From a virus, in IMG/VR virus record IMGVR_UViG_3300032335_000935, positions 4,090 through 68,089 of that record: a stretch of DNA of 64,000 nt. One strand, written 5' to 3'. Positions 33,698 to 55,126 of the stretch are shown here, one piece after another. The position numbers and the translations under genes are program-made. Within the stretch, counting starts at the first letter, position 1. Each line of letters opens with the position of its first letter. The notes beneath the pieces are model-generated. The model made no database searches and was not told where the DNA came from. It was given only the letters and a program-made list of their open reading frames with translations.

Positions 33698-33705
33698 CCA
33701 CTTTT

Positions 33706-34530: not shown

Positions 34531-34540
34531 ATCGCAGTAG

Positions 34541-35028: not shown

Positions 35029-35036
35029 TGGTTCAT

Positions 35037-35111
35037 GGCTGGGTACCAGAGAGACTCAATGGCTGCGCCTGCAAAGCGTTTGATTCGTAGGTTTGAATCC
35101 TACCCCAGCCT
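35037..35111 (+). tRNA. tRNA-like (anticodon uncertain, possibly GCA)
   Basis: acceptor ggctggg/cccagcc + CCA, T-arm gtagg-tttgaat-cctac; weak D/anticodon stems. Confidence 0.4.
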
Positions 35112-35138
35112 CCAACATAAATAACTGTAACTGATTGT

Positions 35139-35210
35139 CGCGCGGTGGAGAAGTGGCAACTCATCGGGCTCATAACCCGAAGATCGGGGGTTCGAATCCC
35201 TCCTGCGCAA
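35139..35210 (+). tRNA. initiator tRNA-fMet (CAT)
   Basis: C1-A72 mismatch, anticodon stem tcggg/cccga (three G-C) loop ctCATaa, T-arm ggggg-ttcgaat-ccctc, CCA. Confidence 0.75.
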
Positions 35211-35264
35211 CCAAAATTTGGCGTGTTGTATAAATACAACACATGAAACAAAATCATTTAGTGG

Positions 35265-35293
35265 TTGACAACAATCACTAAATACTGTACAAT
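35265..35293 (+). promoter_or_regulatory. sigma70-like promoter TTGACA-N17-TACAAT
   Basis: ttgaca 35265-35270, tacaat 35288-35293; followed by 46-codon ORF/sRNA ending near ccggggttttt. Confidence 0.5.
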
Positions 35294-35709
35294 AGGACTT
35301 ATGATGAAAACTGTAATTCATTCACTGTTGACCAAACCCACAATGCTCCAGACAGCTTCTGCCTGGTCACGCGGTTTTGCGAGCGTGAATAGCATTCCAG
35401 GAGTGTCAGGGTCCGAAGGTGGCGGTTACGCATAAAGTGTAACTAACAAATTCAAAGGACCCTGGAACTAACAACTCCGGGGTTTTTCATTTAGTGCAAT
35501 AGGGAACGCGACCCTGCCGGCACTGTAAACATTGGCTTAATGTGGGCGGCCTACCGGATGGTAAGTTCCAGGCGATAACTGGAATGTGTAAAAAGGTAGT
35601 GTATCGAAGCATTCTCTATCCTTCGGCTCCCTGGCACAAGGGCCAGGGCAAGGAGACACGTGGGTTCACCCATGAAGAGTGCTTCGATACACGCATTGGC
35701 AACAGTGCG

Positions 35710-36324
35710 TTAAGAAGTTTTTTTGGTCTTGAGGTCAAGACTGAACTTGAAGCTGTAGCGAACTTGATCAGTGTCGTTCATGCCACAGTGCCTGGCTCGG
35801 TCAGTGTTGATGATCATCCAGCCCTGTCCTGGTGCTGACGGTGCTCGCAACAGGTGTCCGTGCTGACCAGTATCAAACCAAGTGCTGTGCAAGGCATTGT
35901 CCTCGTGAGTAAAGTAGATCATGCCAAATGCCACTTGATTGCGACTGTCAACGTGCCAGGGATGTTTGCAATATCTGGCCGGTGTGGCCACCCAGTTGCA
36001 CTGAAGTTCAGTCAAACTGTCAAAGTACTCGCGCTGAGGGTTACCCCAGGCCATGCAGAACTCTTCATTGTCAAACAACAATGACAGCAGGCGTTGCTTG
36101 AAATCGGCTGTGAAATGTTTTTGAAACACACTGAGCTGAGTATCATAAGGAGCGCAGTACGTGGCCAAGCACATCACTGCAAATTGATCTTGACCACCAA
36201 TGGTTGGTTCCGAACGCCAACCTAGATTTTCTAATTCTTGATGCATGTGACTCCAGCTGGCTGGTGGATCCTGTGTGTCAACAAAGTAAACAATGTCAGA
36301 TGCGGGTGTGAATGTAACTTGCAT
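35710..36324 (-). CDS. hypothetical protein (possible Fe/2OG-oxygenase-like HxD..H)
   Basis: start trimmed to MQVTF at 36324 because ORF 5' extension overlaps tRNA-Trp. Confidence 0.4.
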   Translation of the reverse strand: MQVTFTPASDIVYFVDTQDPPASWSHMHQELENLGWRSEPTIGGQDQFAVMCLATYCAPYDTQLSVFQKHFTADFKQRLLSLLFDNEEFCMAWGNPQREYFDSLTELQCNWVATPARYCKHPWHVDSRNQVAFGMIYFTHEDNALHSTWFDTGQHGHLLRAPSAPGQGWMIINTDRARHCGMNDTDQVRYSFKFSLDLKTKKTS

Positions 36325-36338
36325 GTGGTATTTAATGT

Positions 36339-36409
36339 ATCTCGCTGGTGTAATGGCAGCATGTCGGTCTCCAAAACCGTTGGTCGGGGTTCGAGTCCCT
36401 GGCGGGATG
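36339..36409 (+). tRNA. tRNA-Trp (CCA)
   Basis: acceptor atctcgc/gcgggat, loop ctCCAaa, T-arm cgggg-ttcgagt-ccctg, CCA. Confidence 0.75.
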
Positions 36410-36419
36410 CCAATTTGTT

Positions 36420-36494
36420 GGGGTGTAGTGTATTCTGGTACTAGCACATGTGGCTTTGACCCACATAGATTCGGTTCGATTCCGGACACCCCTG
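36420..36494 (+). tRNA. tRNA-Gln (TTG)
   Basis: anticodon stem tgtgg/ccaca loop ctTTGac, T-arm ttcgg-ttcgatt-ccgga, CCA. Confidence 0.65.
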
Positions 36495-36505
36495 CCAAGA
36501 TTCTT

Positions 36506-36577
36506 GGGCTGTTAGTGATAATGGGAGCACGAGGCCTTTGCACGGCTTAGGTGGGAGTTCGATTCTCCCACGGTCCA
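36506..36577 (+). tRNA. tRNA-Ala (TGC)
   Basis: acceptor gggctgt/acggtcc with G3:U70, loop ttTGCac, T-arm gggag-ttcgatt-ctccc, CCA. Confidence 0.8.
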
Positions 36578-36586
36578 CCAAGATAT

Positions 36587-36657
36587 TCCCCGTTAGCTCA
36601 AAGGTAGAGCACTCGACTGATAATCGAGCGACCGAGGATCGTTACCTCGACAGGGAA
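36587..36657 (+). tRNA. tRNA-Ile-like (GAT) with variant T-loop ATCGTTA
   Basis: D gctc/gagc, anticodon ctcga/tcgag loop ctGATaa, T-arm cgagg-atcgtta-cctcg, one acceptor mismatch, CCA. Confidence 0.55.
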
Positions 36658-36668
36658 CCAAGTTTTCG

Positions 36669-36697
36669 TTGACAGCCAATTCTATTGGCTATATAAT
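36669..36697 (+). promoter_or_regulatory. sigma70-like promoter TTGACA-N17-TATAAT inside tRNA array
   Basis: ttgaca 36669-36674, tataat 36692-36697. Confidence 0.55.
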
Positions 36698-36706
36698 TTG
36701 CTTTAC

Positions 36707-36793
36707 GGAGGGCGGGCCGGACGGTAAGGCAGCTGATTGCTAATCAGTACATCGGTGAAAGCCGGTGAGTGGGTTCGACTCCCACGTCCTCCA
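36707..36793 (+). tRNA. tRNA-Ser (GCT), type II
   Basis: acceptor ggagggc/gtcctcc, loop ttGCTaa, long variable arm, T-arm gtggg-ttcgact-cccac, CCA. Confidence 0.8.
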
Positions 36794-36802
36794 CCAAACA
36801 AT

Positions 36803-36874
36803 TCCAGAGTAGCACAGCGGTAGTGCAGTTGACTGTTAATCAATTGGTCGTAGGTTCGATCCCTGCCTCTGGAG
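36803..36874 (+). tRNA. tRNA-Asn (GTT)
   Basis: acceptor tccagag/ctctgga, loop ctGTTaa, T-arm gtagg-ttcgatc-cctgc, CCA. Confidence 0.75.
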
Positions 36875-36882
36875 CCAATTTT

Positions 36883-36953
36883 GCCCCTGTAGCATGAAGG
36901 TCGTGCAGTTGCCTTGTAAGCATCAGGTCCGTGTTCGATTCACGGTGGGGGCA
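36883..36953 (+). tRNA. tRNA-Thr (TGT)
   Basis: acceptor gcccctg/tgggggc, loop ctTGTaa, T-arm ccgtg-ttcgatt-cacgg, CCA. Confidence 0.7.
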
Positions 36954-37004
36954 CCAATTCTGAATCCATACTCTCCCTTGACGAGCTAGGTCACTGGATT
37001 CTTT

Positions 37005-37075
37005 GCGTGGTTAGTTTAACGGTAAAATCAAACGTTGCCAACGTTTAGTCAAGGGTTCGACTCCCTTACCCCGCA
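37005..37075 (+). tRNA. tRNA-Gly (GCC)
   Basis: anticodon aaacg/cgttt loop ttGCCaa, T-arm aaggg-ttcgact-ccctt, CCA. Confidence 0.75.
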
Positions 37076-37085
37076 CCAAATCAAT

Positions 37086-37160
37086 CTCTGTGTAATGTCA
37101 ATCTGGCAGACGGCCTGGTTCGGAGCCAGGAGGCTGTAGGTTCAAATCCTACCACGGAGA
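37086..37160 (+). tRNA. tRNA-Pro (CGG)
   Basis: acceptor ctctgtg/cacggag, anticodon cctgg/ccagg loop ttCGGag, T-arm gtagg-ttcaaat-cctac, CCA. Confidence 0.7.
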
Positions 37161-37170
37161 CCAAGTCAAC

Positions 37171-37244
37171 GCCGCGTTAGCTCATTTGGATAGAGCACTG
37201 TGCTACGAACGCAGGGGCGGGGAGTTCGAATCTCTCACGCGGTA
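37171..37244 (+). tRNA. tRNA-Arg (ACG)
   Basis: acceptor gccgcgt/acgcggt, anticodon ctgtg/cgcag loop ctACGaa, T-arm gggag-ttcgaat-ctctc, CCA. Confidence 0.75.
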
Positions 37245-37270
37245 CCAATTTTTTAAACAAGGACAACAAC

Positions 37271-37522
37271 ATGGAACGATATAAACAACTAGTTCGCATC
37301 CAGCGTTGTGTCCTGGGTGAAGTAGAACATGAAGTAACTGTTCGCAACATCAACGGCAACTATCATTGCCGAGTGTTGGTTAACGGTGAATTGAATCAAG
37401 AAGCAGTATGCTCGAGCAAGCGTGACATTGGTTACACTTGCCGTAGTTTGCTTCGTTGGGAAGACAAGTGCGGTAACATCAGCAAGTTTGCAAGTGCCGC
37501 AAGAGAGCGTTTATTCGCTTGA
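37271..37522 (+). CDS. hypothetical small Cys-containing protein (83 aa)
   Basis: RBS AAGGA upstream. Confidence 0.35.
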   Translation: MERYKQLVRIQRCVLGEVEHEVTVRNINGNYHCRVLVNGELNQEAVCSSKRDIGYTCRSLLRWEDKCGNISKFASAARERLFA

Positions 37523-37575
37523 TTTTTAAAAGGAAGATGATATGAAACGAGGTAAACGATAGTGTCATCCTGGAT

Positions 37576-37703
37576 CCCGTATGGTCCTGGATGGCACGAT
37601 AAAGAAAATTATTTACGATCCATCCCTCACAAACATTAAGGTGATGTAACCGGCTCTTAACCGGTAAAACACGGATCGTTACCGTGGTGTGGGACCATAC
37701 GGG
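37576..37703 (+). repeat. 12-bp perfect inverted repeat pair (cccgtatggtcc / ggaccatacggg) bracketing the variant tRNA-Lys(CTT); right arm overlaps its 3' end/CCA and the start of tRNA-Lys(TTT)
   Basis: arms 37576-37587 and 37692-37703. Confidence 0.6.
37624..37694 (+). tRNA. tRNA-Lys-like (CTT) with variant T-loop ATCGTTA
   Basis: D acat/atgt, anticodon accgg/ccggt loop ctCTTaa, T-arm cacgg-atcgtta-ccgtg, CCA; one acceptor mismatch. Confidence 0.55.
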
Positions 37704-37774
37704 TTTATAGTTTAACGGCTAAAACATCTGGCTTTTAACCAGTAAGAGTCTCGGTTCGAATCCGAGTAGACCCA
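37701..37774 (+). tRNA. tRNA-Lys (TTT)
   Basis: acceptor gggttta/tagaccc, loop ctTTTaa, T-arm ctcgg-ttcgaat-ccgag, CCA. Confidence 0.7.
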
Positions 37775-37780
37775 CCAAAG

Positions 37781-37845
37781 TTTTCATATAATTGAACTGT
37801 AGGCATAAATACAGTATAGAAAGTATGAGTTCAATTATATGAAAA
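37781..37845 (+). repeat. 18-bp perfect inverted repeat (ttttcatataattgaact / agttcaattatatgaaaa) at 5' edge of HNH cassette; HNH ATG lies in right arm
   Basis: arms 37781-37798 and 37828-37845. Confidence 0.6.
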
Positions 37846-38417
37846 TTTGCCCCAAATGTAACACAGCGCATGAAAAATCAGGAACCTTTTGTTCTAGGAC
37901 TTGTGCTAACAGTAGAGTTTTTTCCGAAGATAGTAAGAAAAAGAAAAGCGTTGCTAACATCGGTAAGACAGCGAGAAAAACTGCTATCACACCCGAAGAA
38001 AGAGCAAGCAATATTGCTAAAACAAAAGCATGGGCACTAGAGAAATACAATTCAGCTACTTTTGACGAGTTAGGGCTGAGTAATAAGAAACGCCGAGTAG
38101 TTGAAGAACAGCAAGGTAAATGTAATCACTGTGGTATCTCTGAATGGAATGGCAAGCCTATTGTTCTTGAGTACGAACATAAAGATGGAAACAACCAAAA
38201 CAATTCAAGAGATAATGTTGAATGTATTTGTCCTAACTGTCATTCACAGACAGATACATGGCGAGGACGAAACAATAAGAAAGAAAAAATCAGTGATGAA
38301 CGATTGTTAGAAGCGTTACAATCACATGACACACCTTCAGCCGCTTTGAGAAGTTTAGGTATGGCTGACAAAGGTGGCAATTTCAGTCGAGTTAACAAGT
38401 TGTTAGGAGTTAAGTAA
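37839..38417 (+). CDS. HNH homing endonuclease
   Basis: CNHCGISEWNG...EYEHKDGNNQNNSRDNVECICPNCHSQTD (HNH with zinc CxxC pairs); AT-rich island inside tRNA array. Confidence 0.85.
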   Translation: MKICPKCNTAHEKSGTFCSRTCANSRVFSEDSKKKKSVANIGKTARKTAITPEERASNIAKTKAWALEKYNSATFDELGLSNKKRRVVEEQQGKCNHCGISEWNGKPIVLEYEHKDGNNQNNSRDNVECICPNCHSQTDTWRGRNNKKEKISDERLLEALQSHDTPSAALRSLGMADKGGNFSRVNKLLGVK

Positions 38418-38573
38418 TGAATGAACAAGACCTATACAATGATTTGTGGACTAAAATCCACGATTTAGTTGATAGTGAGTTAGCAAACGCAGACCCAGAA
38501 ACAGAGGAATACATCCGCAAAAAACTCACGGAATCTTTTAGATTTTGGAAGCGTGGAGAATAAATACTATACT

Positions 38574-38969
38574 ATGACAAACAAATCTATCCGCGATTAT
38601 ATCAACCTTATTGAAAATGCCCAAAGCGAAGAAGTAGCAGAGGGCTGGACCAAAACTCCTAGTGGTGATTATATAAATCAACACACTGGTGTTCGCTCAT
38701 CTAAACCTCCTGTAAAGAAAAAACGAGGTGAAAAGACCGGAGCCGAATGGGACGCAATAGAGAAAGCAAAGAAGGATAAAGAGCAAGGTGTGGCGGAAGG
38801 CTCTTTAGAAGAATACGGCGATACTAACAAAGGTCAAAAGATGTTAGGCAAGGTCCACAATCGTGCCGCAGATAGAGTAACAAGTAAACAAGCAGATAAA
38901 GATCCAGAATATGCCCGCAAGGCACAACAGACTCAGGATCGTGCTTGGGACAGATTAAAAGACAAATGA
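38574..38969 (+). CDS. hypothetical Lys/Glu-rich protein in HNH island
   Basis: start at ATG 38574 after TAA of preceding small ORF. Confidence 0.35.
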   Translation: MTNKSIRDYINLIENAQSEEVAEGWTKTPSGDYINQHTGVRSSKPPVKKKRGEKTGAEWDAIEKAKKDKEQGVAEGSLEEYGDTNKGQKMLGKVHNRAADRVTSKQADKDPEYARKAQQTQDRAWDRLKDK

Positions 38970-39019
38970 TTATTGCTAAACTCAGCAAATAAAATCTAAG
39001 ACTTCAAAGATCCGTAAAT

Positions 39020-39044
39020 CAGAGTTCGATTCTCTGTGCCCCTA
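39020..39044 (+). pseudogene. tRNA 3'-half fragment (T-arm + acceptor 3' strand + CCA) lacking a 5' half
   Basis: cagag-ttcgatt-ctctg tgcccct a CCA at distal edge of HNH island; no complementary aggggca upstream. Confidence 0.45.
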
Positions 39045-39132
39045 CCATATAAGAACACATTCACAGATCCGCCCGATAGTAAGGGAGATAGCGACTAGCG
39101 TTGAAGGACTGTTCAAGAGTGTGTTCCTATAT

Positions 39133-39204
39133 GGTGTCCATAGTTTAGTGGCAAAACCGCGGGTTGTGATTCCGCTATCATGAGTTCGATTCTCATTGGA
39201 TACC
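39133..39204 (+). tRNA. tRNA-His (GTG) with encoded G-1
   Basis: G-1 (39133) opposite discriminator C73; anticodon gcggg/tccgc loop ttGTGat; T-arm atgag-ttcgatt-ctcat; CCA. Confidence 0.8.
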
Positions 39205-39208
39205 CCAA

Positions 39209-39280
39209 GGTGATATGGCGTAGATGGATGCGCACCGGACTCATAAGCCGAGGAGGAAGGATCGATACCTTCTATCACCA
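39209..39280 (+). tRNA. tRNA-Met/Ile2-like (CAT) with variant T-loop ATCGATA and weak anticodon stem
   Basis: acceptor ggtgata/tatcacc, loop ctCATaa, T-arm gaagg-atcgata-ccttc, CCA. Confidence 0.5.
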
Positions 39281-39292
39281 CCAAGTTAGTAT

Positions 39293-39365
39293 ACCCTGTT
39301 CGCCAAGTTGGTAAGGCATCGGATTTTGATTCCGACATTCGGTGGTTCGAGTCCATCACGGGGTG
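39293..39365 (+). tRNA. tRNA-Gln (TTG), second copy
   Basis: acceptor accctgt/acggggt, anticodon tcgga/tccga loop ttTTGat, T-arm ggtgg-ttcgagt-ccatc, CCA. Confidence 0.65.
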
Positions 39366-39375
39366 CCAAACTCAG

Positions 39376-39404
39376 TTGACAGCCTTGGCTGTTGATGTTA
39401 CAAT
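39376..39404 (+). promoter_or_regulatory. sigma70-like promoter TTGACA-N17-TACAAT inside tRNA array
   Basis: ttgaca 39376-39381, tacaat 39399-39404. Confidence 0.5.
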
Positions 39405-39412
39405 ATACATGT

Positions 39413-39485
39413 GCGGGTGAAGTGTTTACGGTTACACGTCAGTCTTCCAAACTGAAATAGACGAGTTCGAATCTCGCCTCCCGCT
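39413..39485 (+). tRNA. tRNA-Gly (TCC)
   Basis: anticodon tcagt/actga loop ctTCCaa, T-arm cgag-ttcgaat-ctcg, CCA; one acceptor mismatch. Confidence 0.65.
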
Positions 39486-39494
39486 CCAAACAGC

Positions 39495-39566
39495 GCCTGG
39501 TTAGCTCAGGGGTAGAGCGTCTCGTTTACACCGAGAGGGTCGGCAGTTCGAAACTGTCACCAGGTA
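39495..39566 (+). tRNA. tRNA-Val (TAC)
   Basis: D gctc/gagc, anticodon tctcg/cgaga loop ttTACac, T-arm ggcag-ttcgaaa-ctgtc, CCA. Confidence 0.8.
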
Positions 39567-39576
39567 CCATTTTAAT

Positions 39577-39645
39577 CGCGGGGATTCAGGGTAAAGGTCA
39601 GTCTCATAAGCTCGGCCTGGGTGTGTTCGAGTCCGCCCCCCGCAA
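39577..39645 (+). pseudogene. degenerate tRNA-like element (CAT loop, truncated D-arm) sharing a 17-mer with 33219-33235
   Basis: acceptor-like cgcgggg/ccccgca + CCA, loop ctCATaa, no proper D-arm or T-stem. Confidence 0.35.
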
Positions 39646-39654
39646 CCAACTCAT

Positions 39655-39728
39655 CGGAGTGTGGCGCAGTCTGGTAGCGCACCTGGTTTGGGACCAGGGG
39701 GTCCAAGGTTCGAATCCTTGTACTCCGA
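39655..39728 (+). tRNA. tRNA-Pro (TGG)
   Basis: acceptor cggagtg/tactccg, D gcgc/gcgc, anticodon cctgg/ccagg loop ttTGGga, T-arm caagg-ttcgaat-ccttg, CCA. Confidence 0.8.
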
Positions 39729-39744
39729 CCATACAAAGGAACAG

Positions 39745-39918
39745 TATGACTTGTAGAGGTTATGATTCTCGCACAGTAAAGCTCAGCAAAGCCGTCAAAC
39801 TCAGTGCGGCCGGAATCCTTGATGCACATCGTCGTGGTGCGTTCATTCGCAGCTATGTGCTGGTGGCTCGCGAAGCTGCACAAAATCGTTCGTCGCGACG
39901 CGAACGACAACGATAATA
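39745..39918 (+). CDS. hypothetical small basic protein (57 aa) between tRNAs
   Basis: RBS AAAGGA 8 nt upstream of ATG 39745. Confidence 0.3.
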
Positions 39919-39924
39919 CACAAT

Positions 39925-40013
39925 GGAAGTGTGTCAGAGTCCGGTTTATTGAACTAGTCTTGAAAACTAGCGATCCAGAAATGGGTCCGTGGGTTCGAAT
40001 CCCACCGCTTCCA
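39925..40013 (+). tRNA. tRNA-Ser (TGA), type II
   Basis: acceptor ggaagtg/cgcttcc, anticodon ctagt/actag loop ctTGAaa, long variable arm, T-arm gtggg-ttcgaat-cccac, CCA. Confidence 0.8.
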
Positions 40014-40020
40014 CCATATT

Positions 40021-40093
40021 GCCCCGGTGACGGAATGGTATACGTGTTGGTCTTAGAAACCAAATTTTAGGAGTTCGAGTCTCCTCTGGGGCA
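40021..40093 (+). tRNA. tRNA with anticodon TAG (Leu codon CUA) but type-I architecture (short variable arm), A73
   Basis: acceptor gccccgg/ctggggc, Leu-like D-arm acggaatggtatacgt, anticodon ttggt/accaa loop ctTAGaa, var 5 nt, T-arm aggag-ttcgagt-ctcct, CCA. Confidence 0.6.
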
Positions 40094-40150
40094 CCAAGAT
40101 TCTCCCTTGCATGCGGAGTACAATAGGAAAAGTAGCATGCAACACATTCT

Positions 40151-40222
40151 GCGTGATTAACTCAGTGGTAGAGTCCCGTCCTGACTCGACGGTGGTCAGG
40201 AGTTCGAATCTCTTATCACGCA
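40151..40222 (+). tRNA. tRNA-Val (GAC)
   Basis: acceptor gcgtgat/atcacgc, anticodon ccgtc/gacgg loop ctGACtc, T-arm aggag-ttcgaat-ctctt, CCA. Confidence 0.75.
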
Positions 40223-40232
40223 CCAACAATTT

Positions 40233-40305
40233 GCCGCGGTAGCTCATCAGGTAGAGCAGCAGACTGAAAATCTGTGTGTGGCTGGTTCGAGTCCAGCTCG
40301 CGGTA
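40233..40305 (+). tRNA. tRNA-Phe (GAA)
   Basis: acceptor gccgcgg/tcgcggt, anticodon gcaga/tctgt loop ctGAAaa, T-arm gctgg-ttcgagt-ccagc, CCA. Confidence 0.8.
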
Positions 40306-40314
40306 CCATAACAG

Positions 40315-40388
40315 GCCCTGGTGGTGGAATTGGCAGACACACTGCGTTGAGGTCGCAGGCACTACGGGTTCGAGTCCCGTCTAGGGTA
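40315..40388 (+). tRNA. tRNA-Leu (GAG) lacking long variable arm (type-I-like, 74 nt)
   Basis: acceptor gccctgg/ctagggt A73, Leu-type D-arm gtggaattggcagacac, anticodon ctgcg/cgcag loop ttGAGgt, var gcact, T-arm acggg-ttcgagt-cccgt, CCA. Confidence 0.65.
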
Positions 40389-40602
40389 CCAAGTTTTGCA
40401 AACAAACACTCGTGCGGGGGTAATACCCCTTGAAGCTCTGTGCAGTGATGCGCATCTTCTATGGATCAGTTGGTGGGATGAGAGGTCCTTCACTGTTTCC
40501 GGTGTCAAGAATTATCCATTCGGTGGAGCCGGAGTGCCAACCCTGGTCGATAGTTCACAGCCACACGCCCCGGCGAAACCGGATTGTTTGCAATTTTTTA
40601 TT

Positions 40603-40675
<73 letters not shown>

Positions 40676-40682
40676 CCAATTT

Positions 40683-40768
40683 GGAAGGTTAACTGGGCTG
40701 GGCCCAGCACTGTTTCGAAAACAGATGGACTGCAAAAGCGGTTGGAGTTCGATTCTGCCATCCTTCCT
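40683..40768 (+). tRNA. tRNA-like, 86 nt, unclassified (6-bp internal hairpins; poor T-stem)
   Basis: ends ggaagg.../...ccttcc-t-CCA; ttcgatt T-loop-like; anticodon not identifiable. Confidence 0.3.
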
Positions 40769-40895
40769 CCACGTTACTGTAAATAGACAATACATGGTAC
40801 ACGGGATTATCATCACTGACAATGCTTTTTTAGAAAGCGATGTGGGCATTGACAAAAAACTCGCCTTTGATTACTCACAGGTCTATAACTGACAT

Positions 40896-40963
40896 TGGCT
40901 CACTCTGGCGATTCTCAGGAGTCCAAATCCATGGGATCTGGGGTTCGATTCCCTGAGGGCCAG
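40896..40963 (+). tRNA. tRNA-like, unclassified (possible TCC loop)
   Basis: acceptor tggctca/agggcca (6/7) + CCA, T-arm tgggg-ttcgatt-ccctg. Confidence 0.35.
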
Positions 40964-40975
40964 CCACATACATGC

Positions 40976-41004
40976 TTGACCACAATTTGTGGTCAGTGTA
41001 TAAT
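40976..41004 (+). promoter_or_regulatory. sigma70-like promoter TTGACC-N17-TATAAT immediately upstream of tRNA-Pro(GGG)
   Basis: ttgacc 40976-40981, tataat 40999-41004. Confidence 0.55.
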
Positions 41005-41008
41005 CAAA

Positions 41009-41082
41009 CTCTGTATAGCGCAGCCCGGTAGCGCACTAGTCTGGGGGACTAGGGGTCGCAGGTTCGAACCCTGCTACAGAGA
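41009..41082 (+). tRNA. tRNA-Pro (GGG)
   Basis: acceptor ctctgta/tacagag, D gcgc/gcgc, anticodon ctagt/actag loop ctGGGgg, T-arm gcagg-ttcgaac-cctgc, CCA. Confidence 0.75.
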
Positions 41083-41090
41083 CCAACTAT

Positions 41091-41170
41091 GCCCAGGTGG
41101 CGGAATAGGTAGACGCACCGGACTCAAAATCCGGCGGGAAACCGTGAGGGTTCGAGTCCCTCCCTGGGCA
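41091..41170 (+). tRNA. tRNA-Leu (CAA), type II
   Basis: acceptor gcccagg/cctgggc, D gcggaataggtagacgc, anticodon ccgga/tccgg loop ctCAAaa, long variable arm, T-arm gaggg-ttcgagt-ccctc, CCA. Confidence 0.8.
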
Positions 41171-41195
41171 CCAACTAAATATAGTAGGGCAACAC

Positions 41196-41666
41196 ATGAA
41201 AAAGCTCAATCTTGACGAAGTCAAGGCCTTTATTGAGGCACAAACACCGGAAACCAAAATCTACCTTGGTTGCGACTCAGAACGACTCCGCATCGACGGT
41301 CGTTGGTACGCTGACTATGTGTTGGCCATTGTGGTGCACATCAACGGCAACAACGGCTGCAAACTGTTTGGCGAAGTACAGCGCGAACCGGTATGGGACG
41401 CCAAGCCTGGCAAGCCTGCTATGCGACTCATGACCGAAGTCTACAAGGTTTCAGAACTGTACCTCAAGCTGGCCGAAGTGCTTGAGGGTCGTGAAGTAGA
41501 AGTGCACTTGGACATCAACCCCGACGAACACTATGGCTCAAGCTGTGTGATTTCACAGGCCATTGGCTATATCAAAGGCACTTGCAACGTGGTTCCGTTT
41601 GTGAAGCCCCGTGCTTTTGCTGCCAGCTATGCCGCTGACCGATTCAAAGGTCTCCGGGCTGCCTAA
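41196..41666 (+). CDS. hypothetical protein (156 aa)
   Basis: ORF track. Confidence 0.45.
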   Translation: MKKLNLDEVKAFIEAQTPETKIYLGCDSERLRIDGRWYADYVLAIVVHINGNNGCKLFGEVQREPVWDAKPGKPAMRLMTEVYKVSELYLKLAEVLEGREVEVHLDINPDEHYGSSCVISQAIGYIKGTCNVVPFVKPRAFAASYAADRFKGLRAA

Positions 41667-42006
41667 GCCACTGCACAAGCAAGTTAACCAAAATTGCTTG
41701 CTTGTACAGCGACAATGCTGTACAATTGTTTTTGTCAACACAGTGTTGTGTTGACCGGTGAAGCAAAAGGTAGATGAGGACAGGCATAACATTTTAGCCT
41801 TCAAAGCTGAAATGACTCAAACTTGGCTTCCGGGCTAACCCCCGGGTCGTACTTGTGTGCTCTGGATCTAACATATCAGACTTGTGATTTGCTGCCAGAC
41901 ATATACAGGTCACTGTGCTTTGCATGTTGTGACTTGCTGTTTGCATGTTGTTCAGTCTGTTACTTGATCTTTTGCGGATCCGTCTTTTTGTTTTTTTGAA
42001 TGGAGA

Positions 42007-42579
42007 ATGCTCGTGAATATTTCTTTGCGCAAAGCCAATGCCCTGCAGAACAGCATCCTGGATGCTATCCGTGGCCTGGCCGTGACCCCAGTGGTCAGCC
42101 TTAACGAATTCCAAGACGCCGAGCAAGAGATTGCTGCCGTGCGTACCACTGTGTTGGATCAACTCAACACTCGTCGCTATCTCTACAATGCCTTGTACGA
42201 AATCCGTCAGGCAGTGAGTGTAGCCAATCACCGTGTGGGCATCGATGCTCGCTTGGCCGAAGTAGCCCACACCGACAAGTTGGTGCAGGTGTACCAAAGT
42301 CTGGCCGATGGCAAGGCTCGTGATGCCGCTGCTGTGGTGGCTGGCAAGTTGGAGAGACTACGATCGCGTGTAGAAAGCAGCCGCTTGTATGCGTTTGAAA
42401 GCACTGTAGAAACTTCAGCATTGAGCCAAGAAGATCTTGACAGCTTTCGTCGGGAAGTGGCTCAGCTCAAGAAGGCCAAGCAAAAGGTTCAGGACGAAAT
42501 CCTGGAACTCAACGTGCGCACTGAAATCACTCTCAGTGACAGCACTCGAGCTGTGTTGACCAGCCAAGGCCTGGTGTAA
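42007..42579 (+). CDS. hypothetical coiled-coil-like protein
   Basis: RBS GGAGA before ATG 42007. Confidence 0.4.
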   Translation: MLVNISLRKANALQNSILDAIRGLAVTPVVSLNEFQDAEQEIAAVRTTVLDQLNTRRYLYNALYEIRQAVSVANHRVGIDARLAEVAHTDKLVQVYQSLADGKARDAAAVVAGKLERLRSRVESSRLYAFESTVETSALSQEDLDSFRREVAQLKKAKQKVQDEILELNVRTEITLSDSTRAVLTSQGLV

Positions 42580-42618
42580 TCACTGTCCGGGTGAGATTCC
42601 CGGACTAGACAATGTCAT

Positions 42619-42691
<73 letters not shown>

Positions 42692-42695
42692 CCAC

Positions 42696-43400
42696 TTAAC
42701 CACGAACCTGGGCTAGGCCCAGAGTCTTCAATAGGTGAATGTAAACCCAGCCAATGTCTAGTTCGTACCAGCGACAACTGAATCGAGCACTGGCTCCGTT
42801 GCCGTGATGATTGTTGTGTAGTTCTTCTCCGCCAATCCAGATGCCAATAGGCAAGAGATTGCGACTGGTGTCTTGCACAGCATAGTTTCGATATCCCCAC
42901 CAGTGTGCTAGGCCATTGATTACACCAGCAGCCCAGAACGGAATCCAGATCATTTGTATGAGCCAGATCACTGGTCCCCACCAGCCAAACATCAAGGTGT
43001 TGAACACAAAGAGAAGGCCAATGCCAAGGGTAGGTCTAGCACTGTATAAGTGAAGCTCCACCCAATCAGTAGGACAACCGCGACCAAGTGCAGTGACCAT
43101 GTCACTATCTTGTTTTGCTTTGACATATAAGAATGCTCCCCCAAACAACACTTTCCAGATACCGTGAATTTTTGGGCTGTGTGGATCACGGTCTGTGTCA
43201 CTGGCCTGATGATGTCGTCGATGTACTGCTACCCATTCGCGTGTGATCATGCCTGTTGTGAGCCATAACCAAAAACGAAAAAAGTGTGCAATCACAGGAT
43301 GAAACTCCACGCTGCGATGTGCTTGGCTGCGGTGTAGATACAGCGTCACAGCCATTATGGTGATGTGTGTGGCCACCAACAAATAAATAATTTCAGTCAT
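42696..43400 (-). CDS. membrane fatty-acid (acyl-lipid) desaturase
   Basis: TM helices plus His boxes HRSQAH, HRRHH, HNNHH in canonical order. Confidence 0.85.
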   Translation of the reverse strand: MTEIIYLLVATHITIMAVTLYLHRSQAHRSVEFHPVIAHFFRFWLWLTTGMITREWVAVHRRHHQASDTDRDPHSPKIHGIWKVLFGGAFLYVKAKQDSDMVTALGRGCPTDWVELHLYSARPTLGIGLLFVFNTLMFGWWGPVIWLIQMIWIPFWAAGVINGLAHWWGYRNYAVQDTSRNLLPIGIWIGGEELHNNHHGNGASARFSCRWYELDIGWVYIHLLKTLGLAQVRG

Positions 43401-43419
43401 ATATTACTTATCAAAATCT

Positions 43420-43491
43420 CGGGCCTTAGTTCAATGGATAGAATGCGATGCTTCGAACTTCGAGATGTGGGTTCGATTCCTGCAGGCCCGG
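43420..43491 (+). tRNA. tRNA-Arg (TCG)
   Basis: acceptor cgggcct/aggcccg, D gttc/gaat, anticodon cgatg/cttcg (4/5) loop ctTCGaa, T-arm gtggg-ttcgatt-cctgc, CCA. Confidence 0.6.
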
Positions 43492-43498
43492 CCATGTC

Positions 43499-44125
43499 AT
43501 GAATATCTGTGTGTTTGGTGGCGGTGGCACGTTGGGCCAATTTGGTCCTGACTTCTGCCAACGTGCCACCGGCGACGGCCACAACGTTTACACCATATCT
43601 CACACAGATCGCCCTACCAGCATCACTGCCAACTTTGACAACACCGCAGATGTGGTTCACAAGTTTGAATCTGTGGCCAGCAAAGTGACCTTGGATCTAG
43701 TGATATACAATACCACAGCATCTGGGTACCCTGATCAACCCAATTGTTTTGCCGCTGATCATGAATACCAAGAACAACACTGGCTAGACAGTGTGAGAAT
43801 CCATGCTGCAATTCCGCATGCTGTGGCTCTAAAGTCCATGCAATACATGCAGCCTGGCAGCGCCATGGTGTTCATGACTTCGGGGATTTCCTGGGAACAT
43901 GATCGTAGCTACAGCACCTGGGCTGCCGGGTATGCTGGCGGCAAATCCATGCAAAATCATCTCATGTTGGCCTTGGCCCAACACAACGACCGCGGCATGA
44001 TCTTTACATCCATTGCACCGCACTTTACTCCCCAAACCTATCCCAACATTTTTGAAAAAATTTATCAGCATGTCATGGCCATTGACCAACAACACAGCGG
44101 TCAAATCCTAAGATTTTGGAATTAG
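43499..44125 (+). CDS. short-chain dehydrogenase/reductase-like NAD(P)-binding protein
   Basis: MNICVFGGGGTLGQ Rossmann motif; start trimmed to avoid tRNA overlap. Confidence 0.65.
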   Translation: MNICVFGGGGTLGQFGPDFCQRATGDGHNVYTISHTDRPTSITANFDNTADVVHKFESVASKVTLDLVIYNTTASGYPDQPNCFAADHEYQEQHWLDSVRIHAAIPHAVALKSMQYMQPGSAMVFMTSGISWEHDRSYSTWAAGYAGGKSMQNHLMLALAQHNDRGMIFTSIAPHFTPQTYPNIFEKIYQHVMAIDQQHSGQILRFWN

Positions 44126-44198
44126 CTCGCCATAGTTCAACTGGATAGAACCACTGCCTCCTAAGCAGTAGATCCAGGTTCAAGTCCTGGTGGCGAGA
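44126..44198 (+). tRNA. tRNA-Arg (CCT)
   Basis: acceptor ctcgcca/tggcgag, D gttc/gaac, anticodon actgc/gcagt loop ctCCTaa, T-arm ccagg-ttcaagt-cctgg, CCA. Confidence 0.8.
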
Positions 44199-44336
44199 CC
44201 ATTGACAAAAGCAATTATCAACATAAAAATAATTTCAGTAGAAACCATGAGATTCTCTTGATTTCCATGATACATACTGTTACAATACATGCACAGTGGC
44301 AAACACTGAACCATTTCATTTTTAACAGGAGATAAT

Positions 44337-46715: not shown

Positions 46716-46865
46716 ACCACTGTTGTTTGACAGCTACCCAGATCTTGGCAACAAGATCCGGGTTTATCTTTGGGCGTCCCAACATCCATTGATTTAGAAT
46801 TCTAAATTAAGCGTCTGTGCCCAAAACAGTATTCCACAAAAAACTTGATCATGCTCATACCGTAT

Positions 46866-46895
46866 ATATACTGGGTTGACAACACCACACAACTT
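46866..46895 (+). promoter_or_regulatory. sigma70-like promoter TTGACA-N18-TATAAT
   Basis: ttgaca 46866-46871, tataat 46890-46895. Confidence 0.5.
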
Positions 46896-46928
46896 CGTGT
46901 ATAATACAATTTTTGTCAAGGAGCAACC

Positions 46929-47189
46929 ATGAACACCCAAGATGACAGCACTCTCCGACTCACCAGCGAATTAGCTGTGGCACAAATTGGTAACCGATAT
47001 GACACTGTGTTGGTGGCCGCACAACGACTGCGCGAACTGCGTCGTGGTGATGCAGCCTTGGTACCTTGCCGTGAAGGCAAAGTAACCACAGTGTTGAAAG
47101 AAATTGAACAGGGACTGGTAGGGCGCGAATACCTGTTGAAGAATCATGGTCGCGAACATCGCAGCCATAAACATCAAGGAACAAAATGA
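46929..47189 (+). CDS. rpoZ: RNA polymerase omega subunit-like protein
   Basis: [31 protein letters not shown]...[12 protein letters not shown] closely follows RpoZ core (IGNRFDLVLVAARRARQ...PLVP...A..EI..G). Confidence 0.65.
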
Positions 47190-48475
47190 CCGATTATCGA
47201 GTAAGAGACATTGAACTAGCGGCCTGGGGTCGCCGTGAAATAGCCATTGCCGAGCACGAAATGCCTGGGCTCATGGCTGTGCGTGAACAATATCGCGACA
47301 GCAAGCCTCTCAAAGGCGCCAAAATTGCTGGTAGTTTGCACATGACTATTCAAACCGCAGTGCTGGTAGAAACCTTAATAGATCTGGGTGCTGAGGTACG
47401 CTGGAGTTCATGCAACATTTTCTCTACTCAGGACCATGCTGCCGCAGCCTTGGCTGCTCGTGGCATTCCAGTATTTGCTTGGAAGGGCGAAACTGAAGAA
47501 GAATACTGGTGGTGCATTGCTCAAACGGTTGAAGGCCCCAACAACTGGCAGCCCAACATGCTGTTGGACGACGGGCATGATCTCACTGCCTATGTGCACG
47601 ACCAGCGTCCAGAACTCTTGCCCGGTATCATTGGGGTAACAGAAGAAACCACCACTGGTATTCACAAACTCTTGGAACGTGTGCGAGCAGGCACTCTTGC
47701 CTTGCCAGCTATCAATGTCAACGATTCAGTGACCAAGACCAAGTTTGACAATCTTTACGGCTGTCGCGAAAGTCTTGTGGATGCCATCAAGCGAGCCACT
47801 GACGTCATGATTGCTGGCAAAGTTGCTGTGGTAGCCGGTTATGGCGATGTGGGCAAAGGATCAGCCCAGGCCTTGCGAGCACTGAGTGCCCAGGTGTGGA
47901 TCACCGAAGTTGATCCTATCTGTGCTCTGCAAGCGGCCATGGAAGGCTATCGCGTGGTAGACATGAACGAAGCCTGTAGAGTAGCCGACATTTTTGTCAC
48001 AGCCACTGGCAACATCAACGTGATTACCAAACAGCACATGTTGCAGATGAAAGAAAATGCCATTGTGTGCAACATTGGTCACTTTGACAGTGAGATTGAC
48101 ATTGCTGGCATTCAAGATGCTGAGTGGACCGAAGTAAAGCCCCTGGTGGACCAAGTCAAACTCAGCAATGGTCGCACCATTATTGTGTTGGCCAAGGGTC
48201 GCTTGGTTAACCTAGGCTGCGGAACTGGCCATCCCAGTTTCGTGATGTCAAACTCTTTCACCAATCAGGTATTGGCACAGATTGAACTGTACACCAATTA
48301 CTGGCAATATCAGCGCGGTCAACTGTATCTATTGCCCAAGCACATTGATGAACATGTGGCACGTCTGCATCTTGCCAAGATTGGTGCAACATTAACCACA
48401 CTGACCGAACAGCAGGCCAACTACATCAGTGTGCCGGTACAAGGCCCGTTCAAGGGCGATGGCTACCGTTATTGA
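47186..48475 (+). CDS. ahcY: S-adenosyl-L-homocysteine hydrolase
   Basis: [31 protein letters not shown]-terminus, NAD-binding GYGDVGKG, 429 aa. Confidence 0.92.
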
Positions 48476-48490: not shown

Positions 48491-49276
48491 ATGCATACAC
48501 CCATTTATCCCGACAGCATGCAGTATCCAGACAACACCATGTTTGACTGGGACGCCAAGAGAGAAGTTGCACCATCGTTGTGGCAGTTAGAAAACTTTCT
48601 CAACGAAGAGTGGTACACTCGCATCAAGAATGATTATCGTAGAACCGAGAGTTTGTGGAGCAGCCGTTACCCCAATCGACTGGTCATGGAGAACAATCAC
48701 TGGCTCAACGCCATTATGTTGGGTGCCGCACTAACACCTTATCTTGAAGAGCTAACAGGCGAACGGTTGAACATGGCCACGGCTCGTGGCTATCTTGATC
48801 TCAGTGGCGCATACTTCTATCCACACTACGACAGTTCACAGTGGGTGGTGAACGTGCAGATCTATCTCACTGACGTAGATCGTGACGAACTGGGAACACA
48901 GTTTATTCTTGACAAAGACATTAACTCTACCATCAAGGAAGAACTAGGCGGTGACAAGATCATGGAACTGGTTCCCGACGAAAAGTACTACACAGTTCCT
49001 TTCCGCCAGAACTGGGGGTATATCAACGATAACCGTGAACGCAAACTGCACAAGACTCGCCCAGTTCCGCCAGCGTTTGCTCGCGAAAGTCTGCACTTCA
49101 ACTATGGTTTGAGACAGGGCAACGAAACTGGTCTAGCTGGGGTGGCTGAATGGGCCATTACTGGTCAAAATCAAGTAATGGAAAACTGGCATCAGGCCAT
49201 GACCAAGCTCAACAGCGTAGACGGACTACGCGAGTGGTTGATTCTCAATACCAATTTTCACGAAGGCGTTGGTTGA
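48491..49276 (+). CDS. hypothetical protein (possible Fe/2OG oxygenase: HYD...)
   Basis: YFYPHYDSSQW (HxD) only; tentative. Confidence 0.35.
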   Translation: MHTPIYPDSMQYPDNTMFDWDAKREVAPSLWQLENFLNEEWYTRIKNDYRRTESLWSSRYPNRLVMENNHWLNAIMLGAALTPYLEELTGERLNMATARGYLDLSGAYFYPHYDSSQWVVNVQIYLTDVDRDELGTQFILDKDINSTIKEELGGDKIMELVPDEKYYTVPFRQNWGYINDNRERKLHKTRPVPPAFARESLHFNYGLRQGNETGLAGVAEWAITGQNQVMENWHQAMTKLNSVDGLREWLILNTNFHEGVG

Positions 49277-49301
49277 CTCAAATTCTCTCTTGTGCTATAA
49301 T
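49273..49301 (+). promoter_or_regulatory. sigma70-like promoter TTGACT-N17-TGcTATAAT
   Basis: ttgact 49273-49278, tataat 49296-49301. Confidence 0.55.
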
Positions 49302-53788: not shown

Positions 53789-55126
53789 ATGACGCAACAA
53801 AGGACTCGCATGCAATATTTCAACCCCCGTGTGCTACATGCTCGTGCCACTGGCACCACTGCTGACACCAAAGACAAAGACAAGTTCAAGGACCTGATTG
53901 GTCCCATGGATCCTGCACTGGATCGCAAGGTGCGTGAGAAACTGATCACTGCTCGCGTGGGCCTCTTGCTCCGCGCCAGCTTCTTTGGCAACCTTGCTAC
54001 TCGACTCAAACTGGTCAACGCTGACGAGTGGTGCGGTACTGCCGCAACAGACGGGCGCCACTTCTACTACAATAGCCGCTTTATTGAGATGCTTCGTCCC
54101 AAAGAGATTGAGTTTCTTTTTGGGCATGAAGTGCTTCACTGTGTGTACGATCACTTTGGACGCCGTGGCGAGCGCGATCCGCAGATTTGGAACATTGCCA
54201 ATGATTTCTGCGTCAACGCAGACCTTGTCAAGCACCGTGTGGGCGAGAAGATTACCACAGTGCCTTGTTTACATGACACCAAGTATGATGGCATGAGCTC
54301 GGAAGAGATCTATGACCAGCTCATGCAGAATGTGCAAAAGATCAGCCTGCAAGATCTCATTGACAAGATGCTGGACGAGCACTTGGATGGCGAGGGCGAT
54401 GGTGACGGCTCTGGCGATGGTGAGGACAAAGAAGGCAAAGGTCGTCCGCGACTGAGCGAAGCCGAAAAGCAACAGATCCGTGACGAGATCAAAGAAGCCA
54501 TGTTGGCTGCGGCTCAAACTGTGGACGGTGCTGGTAACATTCCGGCAGGCGTCAAGCGGTTGATTCAGGACCTAACTGAGCCCAAGATGAACTGGCGTGA
54601 ACTGCTTCGTATGCAGTTGGAGAGCACCATCAAGTCAGACTACACTTGGATGCGAGCCAGCCGACGCGGTTGGCACATGGATGCTGTGATGCCGGGCATG
54701 CAGACCGAGCCCATGATTGACATTGCAGTGGCCATTGACGCTTCGGGCTCGATTGGCGAGAAGATGCTGAAAGACTTCCTCAGCGAAATCCAAGGCATCA
54801 TGGACTCGTTCCCGGCCTATCGTATTCATGTGATCACGTTTGATACTGAATGCTACAATCCAGCACAGTACAATTCGGACAACTTGGATTCCATGTGCGA
54901 CTACGAAGTGTCAGGTGGCGGCGGTACTGACTTCACTGCCATCTTCCGATACCTCAAGGACGAAGAGATTGAGCCCAAGCGCCTGGTGGTGTTCACAGAC
55001 GGCTACCCGTTTGGTTCATGGGGTGATGAGAACTACTGCGATACAGTGTGGATCCTGCATGGTACCACTAGCATTGTGCCACCCTGGGGTCAATATGCTT
55101 ACTATGACGAGGACAAAAACAAATGA
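53789..55126 (+). CDS. vWA-domain protein with N-terminal HExxH putative metallopeptidase-like domain (MoxR partner)
   Basis: FGHEVLHCVYDH (HExxH), DIAVAIDASGSIG (MIDAS DxSxS), acidic linker. Confidence 0.8.
   Translation: MTQQRTRMQYFNPRVLHARATGTTADTKDKDKFKDLIGPMDPALDRKVREKLITARVGLLLRASFFGNLATRLKLVNADEWCGTAATDGRHFYYNSRFIEMLRPKEIEFLFGHEVLHCVYDHFGRRGERDPQIWNIANDFCVNADLVKHRVGEKITTVPCLHDTKYDGMSSEEIYDQLMQNVQKISLQDLIDKMLDEHLDGEGDGDGSGDGEDKEGKGRPRLSEAEKQQIRDEIKEAMLAAAQTVDGAGNIPAGVKRLIQDLTEPKMNWRELLRMQLESTIKSDYTWMRASRRGWHMDAVMPGMQTEPMIDIAVAIDASGSIGEKMLKDFLSEIQGIMDSFPAYRIHVITFDTECYNPAQYNSDNLDSMCDYEVSGGGGTDFTAIFRYLKDEEIEPKRLVVFTDGYPFGSWGDENYCDTVWILHGTTSIVPPWGQYAYYDEDKNK

Follow-up and report, generated by a model that had tools for sequence, protein, structure and literature searches.

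The omega locus

The 64,000-nucleotide stretch of viral DNA analysed here (the window; IMG/VR record IMGVR_UViG_3300032335_000935) carries at 46929-47189, on the plus strand, a reading frame of 86 codons plus stop that starts with ATG and encodes a protein related to RpoZ, the omega subunit of bacterial RNA polymerase (RNAP). A first-pass annotation made from the sequence alone had proposed an omega-like protein of 86 residues at this place, and the frame is present exactly as it was described there. An in-frame stop codon closes the reading frame just 5' of the ATG and a Shine-Dalgarno sequence (AAGGAG, 46918-46923, read directly on the plus strand and conserved in relative L007) lies 5 nucleotides 5' of the start codon, so that the N-terminus is genuine and not an annotation artefact. 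Three segments could be distinguished in the protein: an N-terminal extension of residues 1-9 (46929-46955; MNTQDDSTL, net charge -2), delimited by alignments and family statistics; a conserved omega core of residues 10-70 (46956-47138), delimited by AlphaFold2, Foldseek and a column comparison; and a disordered basic tail of residues 71-86 (47139-47186; net charge +4, with four His), delimited by model confidence and family charge. The GC content of the gene (0.498) and that of its third codon positions (GC3, 0.425) are similar to those of neighbouring genes.

A perfect sigma70 promoter (TTGACA, 18 nucleotides, TATAAT; 46876-46905, plus strand; 12/12 in the promoter scan) precedes the omega gene, its -10 element ending 23 nucleotides 5' of the start codon. 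Perfect consensus promoters occur three times in the window, this one among them, against 0.01 expected, in agreement with the first-pass claim of many sigma70-like promoters, and five more matches of 11/12 were found in downstream intergenic gaps, of which four include the TG of an extended -10 element. A promoter scoring 11/12 or better stands 22-29 nucleotides 5' of the ATG in 12 of 63 distinct relatives, versus 3.9% of random 150-nucleotide segments from the same contigs. Another sequence that is conserved 5' of omega in relatives, AACGGTTTAACAACAAAGGA, was considered as a phage promoter and discarded, as it is part of a coding sequence, namely the 3' end of an upstream, overlapping gene.

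Downstream, the start of ahcY, encoding S-adenosyl-L-homocysteine hydrolase (47186-48475, plus strand; Pfam AdoHcyase, E 3.5e-130), overlaps the omega stop codon (ATGA), and both genes are probably co-transcribed and translationally coupled. The following gene, a plus-strand open reading frame (ORF) of 261 residues without family match (48491-49276), is probably the last one of the unit, and the next strong promoter (11/12 with TG) appears after it, at 49273-49301. Given its own promoter, the ATGA overlap and the position of the next promoter at 49273, omega probably heads a three-gene unit read by host sigma70-RNAP. The omega-ahcY synteny was found in L001-L010 and L014, the closest relatives only; a functional link between omega and AhcY as a general feature was therefore rejected, the pairing occurring in just 11 of 65 distinct loci.

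On the 5' side, the neighbouring CMD/AhpD-like gene ends at 46715 and is followed by a terminator-like hairpin detected by RNA folding, CCCAGAUCUUG-GCAA-CAAGAUCCGGG plus a U-rich tract (46736-46772, plus strand; minimum free energy -24.4 kcal/mol, z -3.6, 0/200 shuffles as stable), which we infer to be a terminator splitting omega from the 5' transcription unit. The same hairpin constitutes the left edge of an indel of ~1.1 kb with respect to sister contigs, the boundary being at 46771. Sister contigs L001-L007 and L014 have ~1.1 kb inserted between the CMD gene and omega that the window does not have (window 46771-46829 versus L001 8781-9901); the insert contains two minus-strand genes of about 245-281 and 161-163 residues without Pfam family.

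Family membership and predicted fold

Evidence of several kinds indicates that the product of this gene is a genuine RpoZ/omega homologue. The Pfam profile PF01192 (RNA_pol_Rpb6), which the first-pass annotation had put forward as the check, matched with 38.1 bits versus a gathering score of 26 (E 1.5e-9). The rpoZ equivalog of NCBIfam, TIGR00690, was matched with a modest margin (28.4 versus a cut-off of 23.6), and NF001579 gave 15.5, under its cut-off of 58. A phmmer search against all PDB chains retrieved RNAP omega subunits exclusively (best E 1.3e-10), the top matches being Vibrio cholerae and Escherichia coli omega, aligned along residues 10-77; identity to the E. coli and Vibrio proteins is 42-46%. 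The AlphaFold2 model, built with 49 family sequences as input, showed a mean predicted local distance difference test score of 77.8 (84-91 in the core and ~58-61 in the tail), with predicted helices at residues 6-20, 23-38, 51-60 and 67-70 and disorder from residue 71. With this model as query against PDB, the top 50 Foldseek matches were all omega chains within RNAP complexes, and the best superpositions, on E. coli and Vibrio omega, gave root-mean-square deviations of 1.4-1.8 Å over 59-62 residues with 42-45% identity. The RpoZ core motif noticed in the first reading is found in the protein, in line with profiles, PDB search and predicted fold, an agreement well in excess of chance. A PHROGs scan of the window omega returned zero families, which indicates that phage protein catalogues do not cover this omega family.

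Compared with RpoZ of Enterobacterales and Vibrio, the phage protein shares the profile family, the level of identity, a predicted helical fold that superposes with a deviation of ~1.5 Å and the same core positions. The column comparison revealed 13 positions conserved at 80% or more in both a phage-type and a cellular-type set, the latter chosen by resemblance to E. coli omega and not by taxonomy: N22, R23, L28, A30, R33, R35, G40, L56, E58, I59, G62 and two others. The core pattern GNR[FY]D..L..A..R.R ... AL.EIE.G is present in the window omega. Since the cellular core residues are retained, the usual mode of binding to the beta' subunit may well be kept.

Other traits set the phage proteins apart from bacterial RpoZ. 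Only the phage clade has E36 (Gln in cellular omegas), T54, G65 and Y68 as fixed residues; G65, a near-invariant Gly there, aligns with N60 of E. coli omega. The C-terminal tail is net-positive in 119/119 distinct members (median +3), reaching +4 in the window protein versus -2 in E. coli, and the whole-protein net charge is about +5 in the window omega versus -4 in E. coli. The basic tail of residues 71-86 that the first reading had pointed out is, judging from the family alignment, a universally derived feature. At the opposite end, the terminal Met-Ala-Arg (MAR) of proteobacterial omega is replaced in the window protein by its extension, which amounts to 7 residues more than the MAR start of E. 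coli RpoZ and precedes an Arg at position 10, equivalent to E. coli R3. The N-termini of the 119 members fall into 61 with an extension and Gly at the R3 position, 23 with an extension but Arg kept, the window protein included, 19 with the cellular Met-Ala-Arg start and 16 otherwise different; hence 100/119 (about 84%) are without a terminal MAR, and the MAR columns are occupied in 94-100% of the cellular-type set versus 33-44% of the phage set. That the extensions are uniformly acidic was considered and discarded, as their median net charge is 0, though that of the window protein is -2. In E. coli, omega residues 2-5 help to coordinate the phosphates of guanosine tetraphosphate (ppGpp) at site 1 of RNAP (PMC7676912), and the terminal MAR motif is a published predictor of site-1 binding in Proteobacteria (PMC6912228), according to which the window omega would not be classed among site-1-competent proteobacterial omegas.

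A phage-specific omega clade

Searched with a word index, 5.8 billion proteins yielded 58 relatives with 49-97% identity, all of them metagenomic and none from NCBI or UniRef, and a family-alignment scan of IMG/VR detected 453 relatives, a good number of them on 260-364-kb contigs. The phage contigs stem from freshwater metagenomes. The identical omega protein occurs in 85 blocks of the contig collection, in several samples, and six contigs listed with it, the longest of 348,379 bp (JGI 3300071516 Ga0620986_00428), show the same non-cellular neighbours. Relatives at 80%, 70%, 55% and 54% identity are all located in phage-like contexts, and the genes gmk and full-length spoT are beside omega in none of the contexts examined, window included, unlike bacterial rpoZ in the gmk-rpoZ-spoT locus typical of Gammaproteobacteria. 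In the window, omega is surrounded by genes for AhpC, an aldolase, a GDSL hydrolase, the CMD protein, AhcY, phosphatases and MoxR/VWA proteins.

The automatic annotation of the Joint Genome Institute (JGI) tags several members as 'RNA polymerase subunit omega', so the homology is visible in databases; it appears undiscussed all the same, as a phage-encoded omega was described in none of the papers that our full-text searches retrieved and the words omega, rpoZ, ppGpp and stringent are absent from a 2026 review of jumbo-phage biology. The first-pass remark that a phage-borne omega would be unusual holds for the isolated phages of GenBank and for the papers found, but not for uncultured jumbo phages, where the family is widespread. 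A tblastn search of 50,697 GenBank phage records with three family subtypes disclosed no phage omega: nine records matched, and one record of each kind was checked, all being bacterial DNA, the rest being Salmonella genome records or the same E. coli-type match. The candidates discarded in this way were 'Acinetobacter phage MD-2021a' (CAKLQH020000003.1 and CAKLQF020000004.1), which contains ispH-gmk-rpoZ-spoT plus pilus genes; the unverified 'Campylobacter phage A11a', whose segment is 100% identical to E. coli gmk-rpoZ-spoT, with the same match in A18a (records MG065691.1 and MG065686.1); and the unverified 4.4-kb 'Bacteriophage sp.' MT839270.1, with a bacterial rpoZ-spoT.

Among 185,579 bacterial and archaeal species, each represented by one genome, a scan with the single pattern GNRYD[LT]VL[IV] found one relative, a result which indicates that the phage signature is missing from cellular genomes and not that cellular omegas are unrelated. 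That lone GTDB match (L018; CAZEDO010000145.1, a 7-kb contig in a metagenome-assembled genome of Lentimicrobiaceae) was rejected as a cellular origin of the family; it shares S8-peptidase and QueC-like neighbours with a 128-kb phage-like contig (L012) and is probably a mis-binned phage fragment.

A HMMER search of 1.84 billion cluster representatives gave about 190 matches at E<=1e-3, of which the first ~65 are short, basic-tailed and of phage type, the first clearly cellular-type omega (MARVTVEDAV..., with an acidic tail) appearing in the ranking at 46 bits. The 16 cellular-type omegas, selected as indicated above, formed one clean bipartition when 145 sequences were placed in a neighbour-joining tree; with the other 144 sequences ordered by their distance to the window protein, the nearest cellular-type omega came 104th. 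The median ratio of nonsynonymous to synonymous substitution rates (dN/dS) was 0.25 for 154 unsaturated pairs among 65 distinct genes, with 97% of the pairs below 0.5, and 0.10 between the window gene and L007, its 80%-identical relative. On these comparisons, the omega clade is deep and phage-specific, an old gene maintained by phages.

The observations above bear on whether the gene has a function at all. It could be a functionless passenger, a recent fragment of host rpoZ or mis-assembled host DNA, and public 'phage' records do hold bacterial rpoZ through contamination or mislabelling. Purifying selection, neighbour-like GC and GC3 and the depth of the clade (about 45-97% identity) speak against a recent capture or an assembly artefact, as do the recurrence of the exact protein beside the same phage genes on numerous independent contigs of several samples, the lack of adjoining gmk or spoT, and the gene's own consensus promoter and ribosome-binding site. 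We regard this reading as highly improbable and, on the sequence evidence, effectively excluded.

The same data bear on a second, rather unlikely possibility, namely that the phage simply supplies omega, topping up or replacing the host subunit and thereby keeping RNAP assembled, stable and processive, with its regulation unchanged and with termini that are neutral or tune affinity. Such a role would agree with the intact conserved core, with the long one-directional gene arrays of such jumbo phages, and with reports that omega aids beta' folding and assembly, stabilises elongation complexes, dissociates readily and is degraded in stationary phase. Huge phages carry homologues of host machinery such as tRNAs, tmRNA and ribosomal proteins, and the window's own tRNAs and transfer-messenger RNA (tmRNA) are likewise duplicated host machinery, with omega located in the same accessory region; unlike those translation genes, omega serves transcription and its copy is altered at both termini. 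A basic tail in 119/119 members together with the clade-fixed E36, T54, G65 and Y68 argue for a selected, derived property and not for a host copy, and the clade is old and separate from cellular omegas instead of being repeatedly re-acquired.

A PA5oct-like jumbo phage that would depend on host RNA polymerase

The element itself had been taken for a phage in the first reading, and our analysis agrees and goes further: by gene content and collinearity, the window is part of a jumbo phage related to Pseudomonas phage PA5oct (Arenbergviridae-like). Its genes are densely packed and nearly all on one strand, many of them without family. Between 24 and 44 kb, ARAGORN identified 41 tRNA genes together with a tmRNA, exclusively on the plus strand and with small ORFs interspersed. 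The best matches of its MoxR-type ATPase belong to jumbo phages of 284-490 kb, with identities of 50% to PA5oct (287 kb), 46% to Sinorhizobium phage Phosso (469 kb) and 39% to Agrobacterium phage Atu_ph07 (490 kb). Eight window proteins are collinear with a 41-kb stretch of PA5oct at 31-52% identity, the homologues being gp162, gp160, gp159, gp158, gp154, gp149, gp144 and gp140; window 9.5-15.4 kb corresponds to gp162-gp154 and window 52-57.6 kb to gp149-gp140. Relative to PA5oct, the ~36 kb between the two collinear blocks is an accessory insertion, which contains the tRNAs, tmRNA, GOLLD RNA, metabolic genes and omega. The genome would comprise ~350 kb, a size supported by the 348-kb contig and by the 260-364-kb contigs of IMG/VR relatives. 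The phage assignment is based on the tRNA, tmRNA and GOLLD genes, the collinearity with PA5oct and the large contigs, a virion hallmark being no part of this evidence; one window protein resembles PA5oct gp160, annotated as 'virion structural protein', but weakly (32% over 72 residues).

PA5oct, the nearest isolated relative, is sensitive to rifampicin and has no RNAP genes (PMC7318152). Together with the perfect sigma70 promoters of the window, this suggests that the phage studied here depends on host RNAP.

Nucleocytoplasmic large DNA viruses encode Rpb6/omega homologues as subunits of virus-encoded RNAPs, and the phage omega is likewise a virus-encoded member of the Rpb6/omega family. It might by analogy belong to a multisubunit RNAP encoded by the phage, with no action on the host enzyme. 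The window covers ~64 kb of a ~350-kb genome; in jumbo phages of the phiKZ group the beta/beta'-like proteins have diverged so far that they can escape profile searches; and an ORF of 924 residues on the minus strand (61223-63997), reaching within a few bases of the window end, has no family assignment. This ORF was considered as a divergent RNAP subunit and discarded, having no Pfam, PHROG or PDB match; the one sequence that it matched, and weakly (29% over 216 residues), is a hypothetical protein from the Ralstonia jumbo phage RsoM2USA. Neither the window nor ~1 Mb of related loci yielded an RNAP-like protein. The known phage multisubunit RNAPs, to our knowledge, have no omega. Unlike the giant eukaryotic viruses with their complete viral polymerase, the element has shown no viral beta or beta', its omega is of proteobacterial type and PA5oct uses the host enzyme throughout; moreover, the agreement in identity and predicted fold with cellular omega would be expected for a subunit whose beta' partner is of cellular type. 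We therefore consider a phage-encoded polymerase very unlikely.

Neighbours of omega in related loci

Within 5 kb of omega in 65 distinct loci, the commonest neighbours are a ~200-residue metallophosphoesterase (37 loci), a dual-specificity-phosphatase-like protein (28) and an AAA_33 kinase (18), followed by the MoxR ATPase (17), the CMD protein (16) and AhcY (11). In 15 related loci, a gene located 2-5 kb downstream of omega encodes a protein of ~170-200 residues with an HD_4 domain (PF13328, 59 bits), for instance L028 9582-10118, L031 9360-9896, L032 10497-11087 and L066 10612-11121. HD_4 is the hydrolase domain family of RelA/SpoT and of small alarmone hydrolases, and the protein could possibly be a phage alarmone hydrolase. 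Its proximity to omega echoes the cellular rpoZ-spoT pairing, a suggestive arrangement that would point to the stringent response.

In 19 of the 65 distinct loci, the stop codon of a gene for a basic, Cys/His-rich protein of ~100 residues overlaps the omega start by 4-32 nucleotides. The protein is conserved, has no Pfam family and shows the motif HRxAKHHAMxCGxPxCxxCGNPRK...QEKRLFQD...HSNG; the gene accompanies only the extended omega type 'GLTS/GLSN' (L015 2500-2808, L022 6028-6333 and 17 further loci). Such an arrangement makes it a possible partner of omega, translationally coupled to it.

Proposed role of the phage omega

Phages control host RNAP through accessory proteins that bind it, enzymes that modify it or sigma factors, or else bring their own polymerases. 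With a confidence slightly above even, we propose that the phage omega is an early replacement for host omega that modifies the host enzyme. A PA5oct-like jumbo phage would transcribe its genome with host sigma70 RNAP; omega would be made early from its own consensus sigma70 promoter and would fill the omega site on host beta', either in newly assembled enzyme or by exchange with the host subunit, and the outcome would be a phage-modified RNAP. Host omega could plausibly be exchanged, as the E. coli subunit is reported to bind loosely, to dissociate readily and to stabilise elongation complexes (PMC13192885). Two consequences appear most likely. Firstly, ppGpp site 1 would be changed or lost, a proposal that stems from the replacement of the terminal Met-Ala-Arg in ~84% of the family, and phage transcription would become less sensitive to the stringent response. 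Secondly, the basic tail could provide a new electrostatic contact, contributing for example to the stability of elongation complexes on long operons or docking a phage factor. The first-pass annotation had already suggested that a phage omega might bias RNAP assembly or ppGpp responsiveness towards phage promoters, and these ideas would fit the loss of MAR, the HD_4 genes near related omegas and the loose binding of E. coli omega.

T4 AsiA, Alt and RpbA, T7 Gp2, Xp10 P7 and P23-45 gp39 are phage proteins that bind or reprogram host RNAP, and the presumed purpose of the phage omega, an early product altering the host enzyme, is similar. Unlike those accessory binders and modifying enzymes, which are unrelated to RNAP subunits, omega is homologous to a core subunit, and a subunit swap is thereby implied; in none of the papers found is a swap of this kind described for host RNAP.

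Several considerations weigh against the proposed replacement of host omega. In the window protein the equivalent of R3 is still an Arg, so that the loss of site 1 is not certain here, and MAR is kept in 19/119 members; loss of ppGpp sensing cannot then be the universal function of the family. What the analysis shows is homology, predicted fold, a retained core, phage specificity, purifying selection and the layout of promoter and operon, whereas binding to beta' and its consequence are inferred. The evidence on site 1 comes from E. coli and other Proteobacteria, and the RNAP of the host may not use this site. The phenotypes of rpoZ deletion in E. coli are mild (PMC7676912, PMC13192885), from which the benefit for a phage is not obvious. 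The HD_4 gene was not found in the window. Pfam and PHROGs searches with 30 large ORFs of the window and of related loci recovered only genes for metabolism, replication and accessory functions; capsid, portal and terminase genes were detected neither in the 64-kb window nor in the omega-centred loci, 4 kb reached past the window held unannotated genes, and a phage beta or beta' could sit in the part of the genome beyond the window. Finally, the cellular-type set used for the HMMER ranking, the tree and the column comparison was assembled by similarity to E. coli omega and not by taxonomy.

A more far-reaching form of the replacement, which we advance only tentatively, would have the phage omega displace host omega and remove or block site 1, while its tail clamps RNAP onto nucleic acid or a partner, rendering phage transcription immune to the stringent response and more processive. 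In the window protein, the acidic residues before the retained Arg could occupy the phosphate-binding pocket.

Another outcome of the same binding would be a poison or decoy subunit, which occupies beta' and disables or redirects host RNAP, or docks another phage regulator. The single substitution N60D is dominant-lethal in E. coli omega (PMC13192885), and the equivalent position is the G65 of the phage clade. Omega can also be a docking site: in the gene transfer agent RcGTA, the regulator GafA binds host omega (PMC9638019), a case that resembles the present one in tying omega to phage-like gene expression and differs from it in that here the phage supplies omega itself. The Cys/His-rich candidate partner coupled to omega in 19/65 loci might be such a regulator, but it is absent from the window. 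Moreover, the phage appears to need host sigma70-RNAP, as PA5oct does throughout infection, and a general poison would harm the phage itself. For these reasons we judge this alternative improbable.

A phage-encoded homologue of a host RNAP core subunit is undescribed in the literature searched, the 2026 jumbo-phage review included, and the sequences point to a large, phage-specific omega branch with systematic changes at both termini that was previously undiscussed. While the homology itself is easily seen, it is unexpected that jumbo phages dependent on host RNAP should keep a homologue of one of its core subunits. If the phage omega does replace that of the host, the take-over strategy would be new and infection would be tied to the stringent response at RNAP itself; if the more far-reaching subunit swap were true, this would be the first virus to take over host RNAP by subunit replacement. 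The role of omega has long been uncertain owing to its mild deletion phenotypes, and hundreds of natural variants are now available to probe ppGpp sensing, sigma competition and elongation-complex stability.

Other features of the window

The window genes that could be assigned have auxiliary or nucleotide-modification functions, including a 7-deazaguanine pathway, radical-SAM proteins, TctA, AhpC, AhcY, phosphatases and the MoxR/VWA pair. The 7-deazaguanine/queuosine-type cluster (4144-10467, plus strand) encodes GTP cyclohydrolase I, a PTPS/QueD-like protein, a B12-binding radical SAM protein and a QueE-like protein, the gene of the latter being collinear with PA5oct gp162; the cluster suggests modification of DNA or tRNA bases. 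The DUF2201/VWA protein (53789-55126), of a kind that usually accompanies the MoxR ATPase, shows 47.5% identity over 400 residues to PA5oct gp144 (L099 23931-25115), whose label 'HNH endonuclease' is probably wrong. Unusual cargo for a phage comprises a TctA-family tricarboxylate transporter membrane protein (27742-29921), a fatty-acid desaturase (42696-43400, minus strand) and an asparagine-synthase-like protein (18678-20153, minus strand); relative L015 carries a TctC homologue.

The tRNA array extends along 24259-44201 on the plus strand, with one extra tRNA found through Rfam at 39209-39280, and covers nearly all amino acids. The third perfect sigma70 promoter is located inside it (36669-36697), and another perfect one (26024-26053) stands just 5' of the tmRNA, which is of the permuted, two-piece type (26221-26768, plus strand; RF04321, 138.6 bits) with the tag peptide ANDDVYALAA. 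GOLLD RNAs, whose function is unknown, rank among the largest structured non-coding RNAs, and a full-length one lies within the array at 34478-34944 on the plus strand (RF02032, 204 bits versus a gathering score of 150), embedding a tRNA-Asn (34540-34613).

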